Source: Pseudovirgaria hyperparasitica (Eukaryota). Taken from it: a stretch of 64,000 nt of DNA. Position 1 is the first letter of the stretch. Every line of letters starts with the position of its first letter. Both the position numbers and the translations under genes were made by a program. The notes under the pieces were generated by a model, which saw nothing but the letters and a program-made list of their open reading frames with translations, had not been told where the DNA came from and made no database searches. The stretch lies in NCBI GenBank assembly GCA_010093815.1, contig ML996566.1; one strand, given 5' to 3'. Positions 2,438 to 23,763 of the stretch are shown here, piece after piece.

Positions 2438-4358
2438 GTCGACGGCGAGGTTGTGATTAAAGACAGGTTGTCGGATAGAAGATGGGTGTAATCAGTGCTG
2501 AAGAAACCCAGGAATATGTCAAAGAGTCTTTAGGCCGCTACAACGCTTGTGAGTGAGGTGTTACTAATGATTATGGAGAGTATGATTGGGGTTAAGGAAC
2601 CTTAACGCTGACGAAGAGACGAGGTAGAACAGTGTTTATAGCACCTTTGGGTGGTCGAGAAAGCAAGGAAGGAACAACGAGGCCTAGGTATGAGGTTGGA
2701 AGGAACTTACATGATATGAAGAACAACAACAACAATAGTGAGGATGGGCAAATCGAGCAAGCGCGGCTCAGCTTTGATAGGCCAGGCGATGGCAAAATAG
2801 TTTGTTGAAGTTCCTGCGGCGTAGTCTTGTAATGTCTTTGTATTAAGGAGCTGGGGTGTGGGAATGTGGAGAGATGGGAGAAGTTGAGGCTCGCGGAATG
2901 TTTTACGGAAATAGAGCAACGAGGGTGGTGATGGGTCTGTTTAATTAAGCAGGGGATGGCAACGAGGCAGAACAATTGTACAGAGCCGTTGTTACAGGAA
3001 TAGAAGAGTAGCAGGAGTTAGTGAAGGCGTCAAAAGTAGACTGGGCGCTTAAAGCGATGGTGGACGTGAAGGAGTAGTAAAAGCGCGTAAATTGTGGAAG
3101 CCGGGCTGGGCAATAGGTCAAGAGTTATATAATGATACGAGGGTCTAAATACATGTAAGTGAAGAAGACATGCGCGGGATGCAAAAAGGGCCGGCAGGAG
3201 GAATATATGAATCGCTGCACATGCTGCACATCGCAACGACAGATCCCAGACCCACAACAAGGCGAAGAGGATTGCGGCGTGAGCTTGACAGAAAATAGCA
3301 AGGCTTTGCTCGTCTGATGCTCGGGACGCTGAGTAAATTCGCGTTCTTGGACGACGTTTCACATACATAGATTATCCCATTCCATGACAACTGTATACAC
3401 AATACACAGTGGAGGTGATGATGTTGATGCGGGAAAAAAGCAGCTGCAAGCGCCGCAGCCCAACCAGAAGCAGCCAAGCGCAGTTGTTTTGAAACCAGCG
3501 ACAACACGACTCAGGGGCTCCCCATGGATGATTGGCCATCGTATGCCAATTATACTTATTCCTACAGGCCAATGCTATCAAAACAGACCACTTGGCCGCG
3601 AGTCTCTATCGCTGTGCTGCAGCCAGATGCGTATTCGTGCTCCGTCTCACCGCAGTCAACAACCTGGAAGTGCTTCTAAGCGCCCCTAGCAGCACGACTG
3701 TCGTCAAACATAATTGCGCACCTGCAGCGCTCGACGTCCAGCCGAGCTCTTGCGCCTATGCACTCCTGCGGCGTATCGTTGTCTACTACGTACTAATTAA
3801 TACGCATTCTGTTCTATTCATACCTAACCAGGTTCAAGTCCCAGTCTTGACTCATGATCTCGGCAGCCAGCCCTCCGGCCGCTCGGGAGACGCCTCCTGC
3901 TTCTACGTCCACCTAATTACCCTGCAGCCTGCATGTTCGTCTTGCCGTCTCACCTCTAGATCTGGCCAGCGGGGGATTATATGGGCACACTTTCTGCCGT
4001 GTGGCAGTGTCTGTCAGCTTCATAGCCTGCAGCAGCCTAGAAAGCTTATTGACAGCTTGTCACTGGCAGATTGCGAGTACATGGCGCGGTCATGACTGTT
4101 GATCTACAAGCACAAGAGTGCCACAGCCTAATGATCCGTCCCCCTAATTTCCCTCAAGTCCCCGTTAGGCATTTATAATTTCGTCGAGCTATAAGCCGAT
4201 ATCTGTATGCATTCGAGGCACATTCATCCAGGGAGAACCGCAAGCCACGAACGATGTAGCCTGTTTTAAACCCGCAACCAGCCTCGAACAACCATTGCCA
4301 AGCAATTTCATCACAGTGAAACCGTCCATATATGCAATAAAGCTCTCCTTCACAATTT

Positions 4359-6091
4359 CTACCTCCCTTCATTTCTGACCTTGTAACTCACTCGCGGCCG
4401 ACACCAGCCCAATACCTCAGCCACGTCTGCTCGAACCAGATCTTCCGCGACCCGGTACACGTCCTTGTACGCCTCCGGTGCTTCCTCGAACACCAGCTGC
4501 TTCTCGTCGCAAATGACCCATGTCCCACCACGTATGTCAGATCCATCTTTTGCGTGAGGTCGCTGGAACAATACAGAGGTGGGGACGGTGAGCCTCTCTG
4601 CCTTGCCCCATCGGTTTGTCATCGCCAGGTATGCGTTCGCGCGGGACATGCTGCGTCCAGCACCGTGTGCAAGCGAGAGAGCATTGTCGAGGCCAAACTT
4701 CGTGCTTGCCGTAAAGCGCGGTCGAAGAATGAGCGTTGGTGTTCCCCGCGATCCTGGCAGCGGGAGGATGTTTAACGGTTTGTTTGTGCTTGGATTATAG
4801 GTCGGCGCAGCTCCTTTACGGTGGATGTATACGTACTCGTCTCCTGGAACGATCGTGGGAGCGTCCGAAGATAGCGCTAGCGAGGTAGCTTGCTGAATGT
4901 CTATGCATTCTGGGCTTCGCGGAGGCCATCTCGTTCGTTCGACGTTGTTGTGCCAGATGTCAACTACTTTGCGCTGCTGAAGAGTCTTCTTGACGTCAGC
5001 TATAGACATGTCGGAGTCAACTTGACACTTGTTCTGACCCAATGCCCACGCGTCTTCTCCCGGTTCGAGACAAGAGAGGAATCTCAGCGCGATCAAGTCT
5101 CGGTTGCATTTTGCCCAATTACAAGCGCGGTCGTGCTCCTTCATATACGCCTTCGCCTTCTCGTCATCTTCATGTAGGCTGTCTTGTGAAGCTGAGGTGT
5201 ATCGCTTGAGGATGTCACCTCCGTATCCACGAGATCCAGAATGTACGAGTAGAATCACTTCATTCTCTAGTAGAGCTGATGAGCCTTGCTCAACCACTTG
5301 GATTTCCGCAAAGTGATTGCCTGCCCCAATCGTACCTAGTGACTCATCCCATTCCGCACCAGCCGAATGTGATTCATGCCCTTCCGTCAGCCAGGCCTCC
5401 CGCTCAGTCTGTGACCGCCATGGCCCCTCAAGCCCATGAAGCTTCTCGCCTACCTTCTTCCCTTTGTCGTCGTCGACTTGTGATCTCTTTAGCGTGGTTC
5501 TATACCAAGACATTCCACATCCAATGTCACCTCCTATCAACGGCGGATGAATCCATCGCTTGGACACAAACACCGCACCGATCGGGTATTTCGACCCAGG
5601 ATGAAGATCTGGCTGGCCACAAGCGTGCACAAGTCCAGGTAAGGTCCGTACAGTATTTTCAATCTGCGCGATTGACTGTGAATCTACTAGTGCGTTTTTC
5701 GCGAGTACGTGGATCGAACAATCTGGACTGGGCACAGCTGTATGACGTCAATTGCGACACCACAGACTCCAGTAGTGATCAACTTACGCCCGTCTTCAGG
5801 AGTTGGCTCCTTCCTCACCCCTACATACCCCTCGCCTGCAGATACAAGAAGTATAACATCGTCTCGCAGTGCATCGAGCCAGTCTTGCTCTTGGAGGAGC
5901 TCTCGTCCGTCGCGGAAAACGAAGATTCGGCTACCTTTCCTGAACTTGAGTTTGGTCTGCGCAGTCTTAATTACAAGCGCTCTACAGGATTCTCTGTCGG
6001 CTGGATTGCGAGAAAGGGTGAGTGGGAGGAGTAAGGGCGCTCTTTGGGATTGGTTCGTGTTTAATGCGACGGTGATACGTTTCGTAGGCAT
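4359..6091 (-). CDS. RtcB-family RNA ligase (RtcB2/release-factor-H-coupled type) with extra N-terminal domain; ~560 aa, 2 exons (6091-5788, 5737-4359)
   Basis: Motifs PDLHPG.YPIGA, GGDIGCGM, SLGTIGAGNHFAEIQ, LVHSGSRG, WHNN, HRKGA, LPGSRG, SLAHGAGR and EEAPEAYK. A 50-nt intron at 5738-5787 (GTAAGT..ATTGAC..CAG) joins ORF 5687-6184 in frame to ORF 4359-5735. Confidence 0.9.
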
Positions 6092-6711
6092 CTTTGCTGA
6101 CAGGCTGGAGATGGATGGACAGATTGCGCTAGCCAGATCCATTGGGAGTCTTTGGGTTCTTTGGCAATGTGTTTCCCTCTTCAATTCTGATTTTGCTGAG
6201 GCCTATTTCTATGGATATCTTGAAGGGTATACAGCACACTTAAATGTATCAACTCACTTATTTCATCCTCTCCATTTGCCGTATCAGTCCGTCAATGAAA
6301 CAAGGCTTGGGGCCAAAGCATGTGTGCACCGCCCCATGCTAAGTCAATTAGCGAGTGCTTCACTGTGATTCATCTGACGCTGCTCTAGAAGATGAAACAT
6401 TACACAGAGTGCTGCCTAGAGCGTTCATCTCTTTCTCCCTTTTCATCCCGAATCCAATCAGGCATTGTTGACCACTTGCTGTCTGAGTCATCATATGACT
6501 GTTTCCAAGGTTGGCACCTGCACAGAACGAAACTCATGGACGGCTGGACAGGAGTAGACAGAACCTCAACGATATGTTCATAAACTCGATAAGGTCTCTG
6601 AACTTAGCTTTGTCTACTATTACTTACGTGCTCTAGGACACTTGAGACTCGACAGACAGACATTACCCGTAAAGATAACATAATATATTCATACTATCCG
6701 GGATCTTAACC

Positions 6712-7178: not shown

Positions 7179-8650
7179 TCATAGAGTCTTGCCCCCATAG
7201 TATACCTTGCGCACATCCACCAGCTTTCGCCCTCTTCCTCTGGCGATATCTTCGGGTAGCTTTTGTTTGTGCAGAGCCTCGAAGGTCGCCTTAACGATGT
7301 TCATAGGGTTTCGTGACCGCGGAACGGATGCTCTGATGTCCTGAATACCAGCCATCTTGCAGATTTCGAAGATAATGTGCATGGCACGGTTGCCGAATCC
7401 TTGATGAAAAAATAATGTCAGAATGTGTAACGTGCATGATGTTTGATGAACTTACCTGGATGCTTCGCAGTCAAGGTAACCTCAGTCGCACCAACTTTGG
7501 CAAAAACCTCGCCATAAATAGTCCTATTCTCATAACGAAGAATCGGCTTCATGTTTCTGATCGCTCGCGCCCTTGCCTGCGCAGCTGCTTCGGTGGGTTC
7601 TGTCGACTTTCCATGACCGATACCAATCATACCATTGCGATTACCAGCAACTGCAAACATGGATGAAGATCCTATCTTGCCCATTCGAGTCTGGTTAACA
7701 ACATGTCTTCGAACAAGGACTTTGGTATAGATCTTTCTCAAGTCATCAGCAGACAGGCCAGTGCGCAGCATCGACCTCGTCATGGAGGGATCTTCTTCAT
7801 CAGCTATATCGGTCGCAGTGTTTCTCGAGATTCTGTCCGAGAGACGTGGTAGCTCTGCAGCCGTTGCTTTTAGCTGCTGTTGTTCGAGGAGCTTATAAGT
7901 TTCCTCATTAGGCGCATTGAAGAGGGTACGTGGATTCGTTGCAAACTTTTCCCAGTCTACTTCCATTTCTTCTAACCAACCTTCCTCTGCTCGATCTTCT
8001 GTATCTTCGCTCGCTTGCCATTTCCCGGTGTTGACGTATTTCTTCCCTGACGACTGTATGAATTCGGCAAGCTTTGCATATAGCTGATCTTCAGTTTTTA
8101 AGTTGATATCCTCGCCCTGTTTGAGTGGCCAGGCTGTGGTGTCTTTCTGTTGCTTGTCGTATAAATAGTCGATTTTGGAAAAGTCATCATCATTGTACTT
8201 AATCCGGGCGCCGTCGCGCCTGATCTTTCCTTGTGTGAGGAAGTCCCTGTCATCAATCGAGTGTTCCGCAGCGCGAATAGCAGCCACTTGTGCAGGTGTG
8301 TAGGCTAGTTTCAGCGCTTCCTTATGCTCCTTCCCATATCGATTATTAATTTGAGCGGCTGCTTTATTGAGCGTGGTGAGTTGGTCTTCTGTGGGCGAAA
8401 AGTTCGACGCCGACATATTATGTTTCCGGAGCCTCCTCTTGGTACTCTGGTCTAGTTCTGAGAAATGTACTAGCTTTCTCTGCAGATCCTGCATAGTTTG
8501 AATGTCATCGGCTCTGATACTGGCATATCGTGGACGGCGTCGGGCGCAGACGGCGGAAGAAGTGTGAAAGAGTCGGAGGTCGCTCGGGGACGATCGTAGG
8601 AAGGCATTTGACTTTGATAGAAGAGACTTTGCAGGACTCGAGACGCTCAT
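7179..8650 (-). CDS. MRPS5: Mitochondrial ribosomal protein uS5m, 2 exons
   Basis: Arg/Ser-rich presequence. S5 motifs [34 protein letters not shown] and [15 protein letters not shown]. Intron ~7400-7455. Confidence 0.92.
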
Positions 8651-8810
8651 GATGGCACTGCTTGATGCGCACCAGGCAATCAATCAGGTAGACGTGCACG
8701 TTGATGATTTATAAATGTAAAGGTTAGAGCTCTAAAGGCCTTGGCGTGGCGCGCCATGCATCAAAAATAAATGTCTGTGCTCTCGAAAGGACTCACAGCT
8801 TGAGCTTCAC

Positions 8811-10583
8811 ATGATCTACAAGGCAGTATTTCAGTGGCCTTTACGAGCCCTACCAACAACTTATCAAAGACTCTGCGGTCGTGGTATGGCTTCTGCTAAT
8901 ATAATTCTCCCTGGCGTCCAACGCAACTATGCACCACCCAAAAGACAACGCGATGGATATTCTCAGTATAAATTCAAGAACAAAAGACAAAAGGGCAAGA
9001 CAAGCAATGGAGGAAGTACCCTTGGAGACCATGATGAGGTGCTACTTCTAGACGTCAAGGCTCTACTGGCGACACATGCGTCTCCTGACGACATCGTCGA
9101 CAACATCGACAGTCAAGAGCCGCTTGTGTCTGAGACCGAGCATAACGCCAAGTCCCTGCCTGAGCTGAAAACAGAACTGTCATTGACAGTACAGGTCATT
9201 TCGTCGACAGGGGATGGACTAGCGACTCGGGAGGAGGATCCAGGACATGTTTACGTGGTTCCGTTTACTGCACCAGGCGACAGAGTCAAAGCCAGAGTTT
9301 TCAGGCATACCCCTAATAACTACTCGATGACGGACTTTCTGGAAGTCGAGTCACCTTCAGGATACCGAGACGACTCGTTGATCAAATGTCAATATTTCGC
9401 TACTTGCGCTGGATGTCAATTTCAAATGCTCCCCTACAGCTATCAACTCGCGCACAAGCAGCGCATAGTTCAAAAGGCTTACCAAAACTTCTCTAATCTG
9501 TTGCCAGAGCTAGTTCCAAGTGTTGATCTCACGATGGGCTCTCCCCTGGAGTACGGGTATCGTACCAAATTAACGCCACATTTTGATGGTCCGCCGAATG
9601 CAAGGAGGAGCGACGGCCGAAAGGGCCGGGTCGTTGAGTTCGAAGAAGTCCCAAACATTGGCTTCATGAAGAAAGGTACACGACAAACCATCGATATTGA
9701 AGATTGCCCCATTGGCACCGAAGCAGTCCGCAAGGGTATGGGCCGAGAAAGGAAGCGCGTGGCCGAGCAAATCAAAAGCTACCGAAAGGGGGCCACGATA
9801 CTCCTACGAGAGACCACAGAGAGGCTACCAAAGGCATCTCAAACCGGCAACACGGACTCCAAAGAGTCGAATGACGACAACGAGACAGTCATAGTTCTGG
9901 AGGATCGTGGCGAACACGTACATAAGAAGTCATGTATCAGCGACAACAAGGGCAAATCAAAGGAGTACATCGATGACTTCGTATTCGTCAATCCGGCTGG
10001 ATCGTTCTTTCAAAACAACAACTCGATCCTCTCTCCCTTCACGCAGTATATTCGCGAAGTGATCAAGCCCCAAAATGATTCAGGAGCCCCGATCACATAC
10101 TTGGTCGACGCTTACTCTGGCAGCGGCCTCTTTACCATCACCCTATCCTCGCTTTTCCAACGCTCTATCGGCATCGATATCTCTGCCGAATCAATCAATT
10201 CTGCAAACACAAACGCCAAGCTCAACAACCTCCCAGAATCTCAGGCATCTTTCATGGCTGCTGATGCCGAACACTTATTTGCAAAGCTAGACTTCCCTGC
10301 ATCTGAAACCGTAATGATGCTCGACCCTCCCAGGAGCGGATGCAACAAGCCTTTCCTGCGCCAATTACTCGAGTATGGACCTCAGCGAGTCGTGTATGTA
10401 AGTTGCAATGTGCATACACAAGCAAGGGACGTCGGCATTCTCGTCGGTGGCATGAAAGGCATTGATGCTGGTCTCGGAGAGGGCAAGGGCATCTACGAGA
10501 TAGAAAGCTTGAAAGGATTCGATTTCTTCCCACAGACGGGCCACGTGGAAGGTGTTGCTGTATTGAGGAAGAAGTCAGCTTAG
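8811..10583 (+). CDS. TRM2: tRNA (uracil-5-)-methyltransferase, TrmA/Trm2 family
   Basis: TRAM-like N-part, CQYFATCAGCQFQ, YGYRTKLTPHFD, FFQNN, DAYSGSGLF, DPPRSG, YVSCN and FDFFPQTGHVE. Confidence 0.93.
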   Translation: MIYKAVFQWPLRALPTTYQRLCGRGMASANIILPGVQRNYAPPKRQRDGYSQYKFKNKRQKGKTSNGGSTLGDHDEVLLLDVKALLATHASPDDIVDNIDSQEPLVSETEHNAKSLPELKTELSLTVQVISSTGDGLATREEDPGHVYVVPFTAPGDRVKARVFRHTPNNYSMTDFLEVESPSGYRDDSLIKCQYFATCAGCQFQMLPYSYQLAHKQRIVQKAYQNFSNLLPELVPSVDLTMGSPLEYGYRTKLTPHFDGPPNARRSDGRKGRVVEFEEVPNIGFMKKGTRQTIDIEDCPIGTEAVRKGMGRERKRVAEQIKSYRKGATILLRETTERLPKASQTGNTDSKESNDDNETVIVLEDRGEHVHKKSCISDNKGKSKEYIDDFVFVNPAGSFFQNNNSILSPFTQYIREVIKPQNDSGAPITYLVDAYSGSGLFTITLSSLFQRSIGIDISAESINSANTNAKLNNLPESQASFMAADAEHLFAKLDFPASETVMMLDPPRSGCNKPFLRQLLEYGPQRVVYVSCNVHTQARDVGILVGGMKGIDAGLGEGKGIYEIESLKGFDFFPQTGHVEGVAVLRKKSA

Positions 10584-22432: not shown

Positions 22433-23763
22433 ATGGCAGACATTGATGAAGACACTATGGAACTTCCTGGGGCTGTTAATGGCGACATCGACCTCAGCGA
22501 TGAGACGCAAGACTTCCGCTTCCTGAATGTCCTCAAGTATAGCCTTCGACACGCCCTGAAGACAATTGCTGATGGGTACCTGCAGTTTCACAGGCGGTAC
22601 AGATGTCAAGATACCCAAGCGCGGAGAGAAAGACTTCGAGCCACACAAAACATCGCTCCAATCGTCTACACTGGCTGCTTCGCGCGAGGCGATGCATAAT
22701 GCTCTATCCACTCCCAGAGTCCACAAGCCGAAAGCACACCAGATCGCTGTTTATGACCCGCACTCGAACATGGCGCATATAGAACACACAAAGGGATCCT
22801 ACACCGCCTCGATGGGAATACATAAGGCAGGCAAGCTTTGGTTACTGCCAGAGGAGGCCTTACATCTACTTGAACGCGGCGACCTTGACGTGCGATGGAC
22901 TGTACATGAGGACACTCATGAAGTGAATGATCGTACACACGAATCAGGAGGGATACCTATGAGTCTGCAAGGTGCATATGCAGCGTTCATAGGCATGGAA
23001 CGTGCTGAAGGCAGGAGACTCACCCTTGAGATGTACACAGTATACTCAGCACTCAAAAGGGGAGGATATACGGTTATGCGTTCTGAGGATTGGAGCGATA
23101 CGAGACCCCCAATCGACACCTCCTGTGCGCCTAAGAATGGAACTTCTTTCCTTTTGAATACTTGGCTAGGACGCCTCTTCTTTGGATCATCACCAGTGCC
23201 CTCGGAGGGGTATGCCGTAGGACCGCTTGTTAGGCCAGGGCTATACAGGAGCTACAGTATGATTCGTGTTGAACTATACTAGGCCATTCGCTAATACTAC
23301 CACGTCAGAGGACATATACCGACTTCTTAACATCGTTTCTACGCATAACCCCACCGCTCCACCATCTTTCTCTCTCCCCTCAGACATCGAGAACCCCTTT
23401 CGATTGACATACAATGTCTGGAAACCCAACTCGAATTTCAAAAAGCGAGCACCGCCACCTCCAGATTTCCGAATTTGTGTCATTGACGCGCGAAATACAC
23501 CTGTGCCCACTCTTTCCCAATTGAACGATCTCATCGTGACGACACCGTATGATCCGCCCCAGAAAGATAAGTCTTTGGAGCAATCGATGAAGCATGGACA
23601 TCGCAATGTCGTACTTGCTGTGGTCGATCAAGGTATAACCAGTTACATACGCTTCAGTGATGCTGGATTTAGCCAGGATCCGATGCACGAGAGGAAGCTC
23701 AAAGCCAGCAGTAAACGGGGCGGAAAGGGAGGCAGAGGACGTGGACGTGGACGAGGACGATGA
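22433..23763 (+). CDS. SEN54: tRNA-splicing endonuclease subunit Sen54, 3 exons
   Basis: DETQDFRFL, IPKRGEKDFEP, LWLLPEEALHLLERG, MSLQGAYA, VYSALKRGGY, PGLYRSY, VWKP..FKKRAPPPPDFRICV and VVLAVVDQG. Confidence 0.92.

Follow-up and report, generated by a model that had tools for sequence, protein, structure and literature searches.

The 64,000-nucleotide (nt) window of Pseudovirgaria hyperparasitica analysed here (contig ML996566.1 of assembly GCA_010093815.1) carries on its minus strand, at positions 4359-6091, an intact, expressed nuclear gene of this dothideomycete fungus. Its predicted product of 560 amino acids (aa) combines an N-terminal beta-grasp domain with a complete RtcB-family RNA ligase domain of the RtcB2 clade, in which every catalytic motif is present. 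By analogy with bacterial RtcB2, this two-domain ligase would most likely, with a probability of roughly 0.55, mend RNAs of the cytosolic translation apparatus after cleavage by nucleases, and small-subunit ribosomal RNA (rRNA) would be the first choice of target. A first-pass annotation, made from the letters alone, had described an intact RtcB2-type ligase gene with an intron at this place and proposed a role in RNA or ribosome repair. The observation was right, its coordinates included, the RtcB2 assignment was broadly right, and the functional idea appears reasonable. The parts of the gene are as follows.

5788..6091 (304 nt), minus strand: exon 1, encoding residues 1-101 and the first base of codon 102, with the beta-grasp domain (~residues 1-95) and a linker
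6089-6091, minus strand: start ATG; homologues begin at the same MP..R..T
5738..5787 (50 nt), minus strand: spliceosomal intron, GTAAGT...ATACAG, with the joint 5737->5788 in contigs of runs X1 and X2
4362..5737, minus strand: exon 2, encoding the RtcB ligase domain, residues 102-560 (Pfam PF01139)
4359..4361, minus strand: stop codon, at the end of the reading frame
4788..4838 (51 nt), minus strand: stretch cut out as an intron in the public gene model, encoding residues 402-418 with the HRKGA motif inside; the transcript retains it
6092..6142, minus strand: possible 17-codon upstream extension of the public model, from an in-frame ATG; not conserved among homologues

The joined exons form an open frame of 1683 nt, giving 560 aa and a stop, and the intron between them has GT..AG ends. 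The joint at 5737/5788, where 50 nt are skipped (CT..AC on the plus strand), is found in contigs from two public sequencing runs, whose kind (RNA or DNA) is unrecorded. One contig of 2611 nt covers 4063-6500, with 5737/5788 as its sole joint, and one of the runs also contains unspliced copies, at a lower depth. Because the skipped stretch has GT..AG ends and spliced and unspliced forms coexist, the data appear to be RNA-derived, and therefore a spliced transcript exists. The lack of such a transcript, which the first-pass annotation had named as a reason to abandon its claim, is thus not what is seen.

The same data bear on the public gene model. Past the 17 extra N-terminal residues of that model, residues 1-380 are identical to the P. 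hyperparasitica protein P0001. Residues 402-418 (17 residues) are missing from P0001, where they are treated as a GTACGT..AG intron. As the homologues P0002, P0013 and P0034 retain these residues and the transcript contig is without any joint at 4788-4838, the public model is most likely wrong at this internal 51-nt "intron". The correction matters to anyone expressing the protein, since the public model deletes the HRKGA motif.

In the exon-2 frame, Pfam RtcB (PF01139) is matched at E 2.9e-50, far beyond chance (172.2 bits against a cut-off of 27). All of the RtcB catalytic motifs listed in the first-pass annotation are there: PDLHPG (residues 144-149), GGDIGCG (170-176), GAGNHF (239-244), VHSGSRG (266-272), WHNN (363-366), HRKGA (407-411), LAHGAGR (457-463) and EEAPEAYK (519-526). 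On the roles assigned in the RtcB literature, D172, C175, H243, H267 and H364 are presumably the metal ligands and H459 the GMP-accepting nucleophile, and D145/H147, N242, H407-R408-K409, R463 and K526 are taken to be further catalytic residues. The residues for metal binding (Asp, Cys and His) and the histidine of HGAGR are kept in alignments to P. horikoshii RtcB and to 31 bacterial-type RtcB2 representatives with 34-40% identity (alignment A2, 32 rows with this protein); they are among the 41 columns of A2 that are invariant in all 32 rows, this protein included. A C-terminal Cys-Cys is seen in six of the 31 representatives (P0196, P0215, P0223, P0260, P0262 and P0265), in some of them after a basic tail.

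Among matches to solved structures, the best by sequence reach ~60 bits (P. horikoshii RtcB, T. thermophilus and human RTCB) and none is a closer relative. A full-length model of P0002, a 66%-identical homologue, has a mean predicted local distance difference test (pLDDT) score of 92.1 and a predicted template modelling score (pTM) of 0.88, and it matches RtcB-GMP/Mn (4dwq_A) at E 1.3e-27. The pTM value gives only a hint that the N-terminal domain packs on the ligase domain. Compared with canonical RTCB/HSPC117, the human and archaeal ligase of transfer RNA (tRNA) splicing, the fold and active-site motifs are the same (Foldseek E 1e-25 to 1e-27, template modelling (TM) score ~0.5-0.6), but sequence similarity is limited to ~60 bits and 21-22% identity, and the two fall into different clades. 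Canonical RTCB works with archease and in a multi-subunit complex; nothing in this analysis suggests the same partner set for the fungal protein.

The preference of the first-pass annotation for the RtcB2 subfamily over RTCB holds in two respects. The top two NCBIfam models, NF007153 (279 bits, nearly end to end) and TIGR03073 "release_rtcB" (228.8 bits), are both models of the PrfH-linked RtcB type, and the protein falls in the RtcB2 clade rather than with canonical RTCB (support 100/99, see below). It needs correcting in a third, as the scores are under the curated cut-offs of both models; thus, judged from sequence, the protein is RtcB2-like but not a strict equivalog of the curated RtcB2 models. 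Bacterial RtcB2 from the rtcB2-prfH module (E. coli ATCC 25922) shares with it the clade, the catalytic residues and presumably the GTP/Mn2+ reaction; the fungal protein and bacterial RtcB2 proteins are 34-40% identical. The fungal protein differs in being encoded by a nuclear eukaryotic gene with an intron, in its added N-terminal beta-grasp domain and in four insertions, which bring it to 560 aa against ~380.

Relatives are numerous. Of the 7999 candidates of a word-indexed search, 7933 are relatives; the best 120 of these are 55-96% identical and 415-633 aa long, and the named proteins among them come from Dothideomycetes and lichen-forming fungi, with several titled "release factor H-coupled R...". 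An exhaustive search of cluster representatives gives 3087 proteins at E <=1e-3, 229 of them at E <=1e-30. Organism names are recoverable for some of the best 150 representatives, and these include Pezizomycotina (Vezdaea, Discina), the basidiomycete Cantharellus and many chytrids (Spizellomyces, Phlyctochytrium, Chytriomyces, Zopfochytrium, Fimicolochytrium and others), as well as the non-fungal Capsaspora, Naegleria, the ciliate Euplotes, the euglenid Ploeotia and a marine protist transcriptome. The distribution of eukaryotic relatives is patchy. The Trl1-using fungal setting that the first-pass annotation had stressed is one setting of the family but not its only one, given the relatives in Capsaspora, Naegleria and a ciliate.

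Phylogenetic analyses were carried out after removal of fragments without a near-complete ligase domain. In a FastTree phylogeny of 190 rows, the RtcB2 type is split from other RtcB with a support of 100, and a single 84-row clade without any named bacterial locus takes in 51 of the 52 rows with the N-terminal domain (support 94). A quick IQ-TREE run on 85 rows, hand-chosen from the 190, returns the RtcB2-type split (100) and the eukaryote-type clade (94), which here also includes a short unnamed row. In the full IQ-TREE search (LG+G4, with the bootstrap not fully settled), 77 RtcB2-type rows are separated from eight other RtcB rows with strong support (100/99), and a fungal-type clade of 20 rows, comprising chytrids, Cantharellus, Pezizomycotina and six unnamed rows, is also strongly supported (100/98). 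All 41 eukaryote-type rows form one clade in the best tree, with a support of 53/79, and are together in 54% of 200 bootstrap trees. A single origin of all eukaryotic copies is thus the best tree but only weakly supported, and a 2025 diplonemid study places eukaryotic RtcB proteins in several clades, which it reads as separate bacterial acquisitions.

As the fungal-type clade is supported at 100/98, the gene is old within fungi and no recent import from bacteria. The first-pass picture of a bacterial gene sitting in one fungus is therefore replaced by that of a fungal-type gene with a eukaryote-type N-terminal domain, which the first-pass annotation had overlooked. Bacterial contamination, recent horizontal transfer or a decaying pseudogene might have been suggested by a domain type that is otherwise mostly bacterial; these explanations are ruled out by the spliced contigs, by flanking eukaryotic genes such as VPS11, Sen54 and GINS, and by the placement in the fungal-type clade, and the frame is moreover open with every invariant residue kept.

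The N-terminal domain of ~95 aa is conserved in 39 fungal homologues with 44-64% identity, and the exon-1 domain has no Pfam match at E up to 0.1. An AlphaFold (AF2) model built from the alignment of the 39 homologues (pLDDT 87.1) has the order strand-strand-helix-strand-helix-strand and begins at residue 3. With this model Foldseek gives no match at E <=1e-3; its best matches are to CIDE-N (E 1.1e-3, TM 0.59-0.65), followed by UBX, FAT10, PB1 and DCX. CIDE-N is also at the top with an independent structural aligner (4mac_A, Z 9.5, root mean square deviation 2.1 A over 78 residues; 7v6e_A, Z 9.2), ahead of DCX (2dnf, Z 8.5) and PB1 (1wmh_B, Z 8.3). A language-model feature search (ESM Atlas), which serves as a lead only, likewise places a CIDE-N cluster first (0.91, 157 shared features). 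Going by the model, the domain is a beta-grasp with a CIDE-N/PB1/DCX-like fold; it is like these domains in fold and not a member of their sequence families, and likeness of fold is no proof of the same function. Basic K42, K47, R49, K51 and R55 and acidic E64, D78 and E87 are conserved in the 39-homologue alignment, and are reminiscent of the charged faces through which CIDE-N and PB1 domains pair.

A hidden Markov model (HMM) of the N-terminal domain finds it in 57 of the 149 cluster representatives, including those of chytrids, the euglenid and the protist transcriptome. In hhalign comparisons of alignment A1, which are no more than suggestive because the ligase domain dominates the scores, the N-terminal part aligns with the Naegleria protein (from column 3) and partly with that of Euplotes (column 37), and is unaligned with that of Capsaspora. 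In the named bacterial open reading frames (ORFs), which were not scanned with the N-domain HMM, the ligase match begins within ~100 residues of the called start, mostly at residues 1-20. Two chytrid gene models, P0182 (925 aa) and P0151 (946 aa), carry the beta-grasp and RtcB unit behind a long N-terminal part, which contains a histone-deacetylase domain in P0182 (E 1.2e-59) and has a weak arrestin-N match in P0151. These architectures could be true fusions or merged gene models.

They bear on the possibility that the protein carries out some other modification of nucleic-acid ends, such as the DNA/RNA end capping reported for one Myxococcus RtcB paralogue, or acts on RNA outside translation. 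The added beta-grasp domain and the histone-deacetylase fusion of P0182 do hint at non-ribosomal contexts, and RtcB paralogues reportedly differ in activity, to go by the title of Maughan and Shuman 2015. Such a role is nevertheless unlikely, as no ligase motif has been lost, the closest relatives that have been characterised are genuine ligases and the chytrid fusions may be artefacts of gene modelling.

The association of RtcB2 with PrfH was assessed in bacteria in a scan of one genome per prokaryote species, from which the best 80 of 599 relatives were taken. The best bacterial relative is 36% identical. Of 38 ORFs directly downstream of the bacterial ligase, 26 score above the cut-off of the PrfH model TIGR03072, and an HMM built from these 26 verified proteins finds prfH adjoining the ligase in 39 of the 80 loci. 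On the 32 distant loci (L049-L080) it has no match except in L060; these loci, save L057 and L060, lie outside the RtcB2-type clade in the FastTree phylogeny. The bacterial loci closest in identity to the fungal protein are L001 (36%) and L002 (35%), from Myxococcales and a proteobacterial metagenome-assembled genome; both are without prfH within 3 kb, unlike most of their neighbours in the tree. The fungal window contains a single RtcB copy and no PrfH: none of its 451 ORFs of at least 60 aa matches the PrfH HMM, and hence no prfH adjoins the ligase gene, as the first-pass annotation had already noted for the window. This sets it apart from the bacterial RtcB2 of rtcB2-prfH modules; according to PMC9304027, PrfH is not known from eukaryotes.

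What bacterial RtcB2 does is the basis for the preferred reading. It reseals 16S rRNA cut between A1493 and G1494, the colicin-E3 cut, after PrfH has acted first in releasing the peptide from the damaged ribosome (Tian et al., PNAS 2022, PMC9304027). The same paper notes 98 eukaryotic RtcB2 proteins, mostly from fungi and plants, and predicts 40S repair for them in its Discussion. For the repair of cut 30S and vacant 70S particles RtcB2 is sufficient by itself, and PrfH makes the repair of translating ribosomes faster (2026, PMC13166195). The ribosome-repair idea is therefore plausible and, being already in print as a prediction (PMC9304027), not new; what is added here is the N-terminal domain, the fungal and eukaryotic grouping, the transcript support and the correction of the gene model, although an N-terminal extension may already be visible in the supplements of that paper. 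In the literature searched on RtcB2 and on RtcB with PrfH in fungi, no experimental characterisation of a eukaryotic RtcB2 was found.

Under the established RtcB mechanism, His459 would be guanylylated by GTP with Mn2+, and the GMP would then be moved onto an RNA 3'-phosphate, itself arising from a 2',3'-cyclic phosphate; attack by the 5'-OH end would reseal the break. The likeliest target would be cut small-subunit rRNA, from kinship with the bacterial RtcB2 that repairs the decoding centre. PrfH would be dispensable, since the bacterial enzyme alone repairs 30S and vacant 70S particles. In place of the operon link to PrfH, the beta-grasp domain might dock the ligase on a partner or on itself, a role that is speculative. 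A bolder version, that of an old, patchily kept eukaryotic ligase for cytosolic ribosome repair in which the CIDE-N/PB1-like domain took over the coupling role of PrfH, is doubtful; there, the N-terminal domain would recruit the ligase either to a rescue factor or to 40S/80S particles that are damaged and stalled, and decoding-centre (colicin-E3-like) ribotoxins would be used in fungal and protist warfare.

Several points weigh against repair of the cytosolic translation machinery, and of small-subunit rRNA in particular. Both RtcB2-model scores are under their curated cut-offs (NF007153, 279 against 407; TIGR03073, 228.8 against 271.8) and A2 shows several insertions relative to bacterial RtcB2, and so substrate specificity may have changed. 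The docking role draws on likeness of fold. No other protein with the N-terminal domain was found: proteins shorter than 310 aa gave six short fragments, 56-92% identical, that look like exon-1 pieces, and longer architectures lacking RtcB were not searched. According to PMC9304027, eukaryotes have no known PrfH and no known toxin that cleaves the decoding centre. Finally, the need for a second ligase is unclear, because fungal Trl1 already repairs rRNA breaks in ribosomes: both Trl1 and human RTCB reseal ribosomes cut by restrictocin in the sarcin-ricin loop (bioRxiv 10.64898/2026.05.26.727988). As Trl1 itself reseals these loops, the alpha-sarcin version of the repair idea in the first-pass annotation is weakened. 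Trl1 deals with the same kind of broken ends, toxin-cut rRNA in ribosomes included, but is an unrelated protein that heals ends and then seals them in an ATP-dependent manner, and it is essential, whereas the RtcB2-type family is patchily distributed.

A tentative alternative, with a modest chance of being right, is a general or tRNA-directed break-repair ligase, which would rejoin tRNAs after cleavage by anticodon nucleases or, under stress, stand in for Trl1 in splicing of the tRNA or HAC1 type. RtcB chemistry suits any break with 2',3'-cyclic-phosphate and 5'-OH ends, and the divergence from bacterial RtcB2 (scores below cut-offs, extra inserts) would be compatible with such a shift. Relatives occur in Capsaspora, Naegleria and a ciliate, which presumably also have canonical RTCB; if so, this would argue for a separate job. 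The protein also groups with RtcB2, apart from the RtcB1 type that repairs tRNA. Yeast trl1-delta cells that have E. coli RtcB are protected against fungal toxins directed at tRNA (PMC9223846, Introduction), but bacterial RtcB2 left damaged tRNAs unrepaired (PMC9304027).

If ribosome repair by the RtcB2-type protein is confirmed, it would be the first dedicated ribosome-repair ligase of eukaryotes and would point to eukaryotic toxins of the decoding centre, with the N-terminal domain as a concrete handle on the missing eukaryotic counterpart of PrfH. RNA repair in eukaryotes has been recognised only recently, and many fungal proteins of the RtcB2-type family are found here.

The genes flanking the ligase gene are ordinary fungal nuclear genes. 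The following were located.

1600-2148, with further exon(s) upstream, minus strand: Cu-only SOD5-like superoxide dismutase of the cell surface; immediate downstream neighbour of the ligase gene
7421-8683, minus strand: probable uS5 protein of the mitochondrial ribosome, with a long extension at the N terminus; the next gene upstream of the ligase gene
8736-10580, plus strand: Trm2-like tRNA U5-methyltransferase
22560-23279, plus strand: tRNA-splicing endonuclease subunit Sen54

Other genes in the window encode an aldehyde dehydrogenase, VPS11, an HMG-box protein, GINS Sld5 and a sulfate permease. In 80 related metagenome loci there are no matches to uS5, the Trm2-like protein, the aldehyde dehydrogenase or four unnamed neighbour ORFs. 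A functional linkage of the ligase to its translation-related neighbours was accordingly rejected, as uS5 and the Trm2-like gene are beside the ligase in 0/80 of these loci.

The uS5 gene is also relevant to the suggestion in the first-pass annotation that mitochondrial rRNA might be repaired. A mitochondrial RNA ligase for the bacterial-type rRNA of that organelle would accord with the bacterial type of the ligase domain and with the likely mitochondrial uS5 upstream. It is very unlikely, because there is no space for a presequence ahead of a fold that begins at residue 3. Homologues share the MP..R..T start, the optional upstream stretch of 17 residues lacks conservation, and the uS5 neighbour does not recur in the related loci.

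On the downstream side, the SOD5-like protein matches C. albicans Sod5 (4n3t) at E 1.6e-22 and has a Ser/Pro-rich tail and a hydrophobic C-terminal end. Of 33 fungal-type metagenome loci, 12 have a homologue at most 3.2 kb away from the ligase gene, with its side and strand varying; this recurrence may be plain local synteny.

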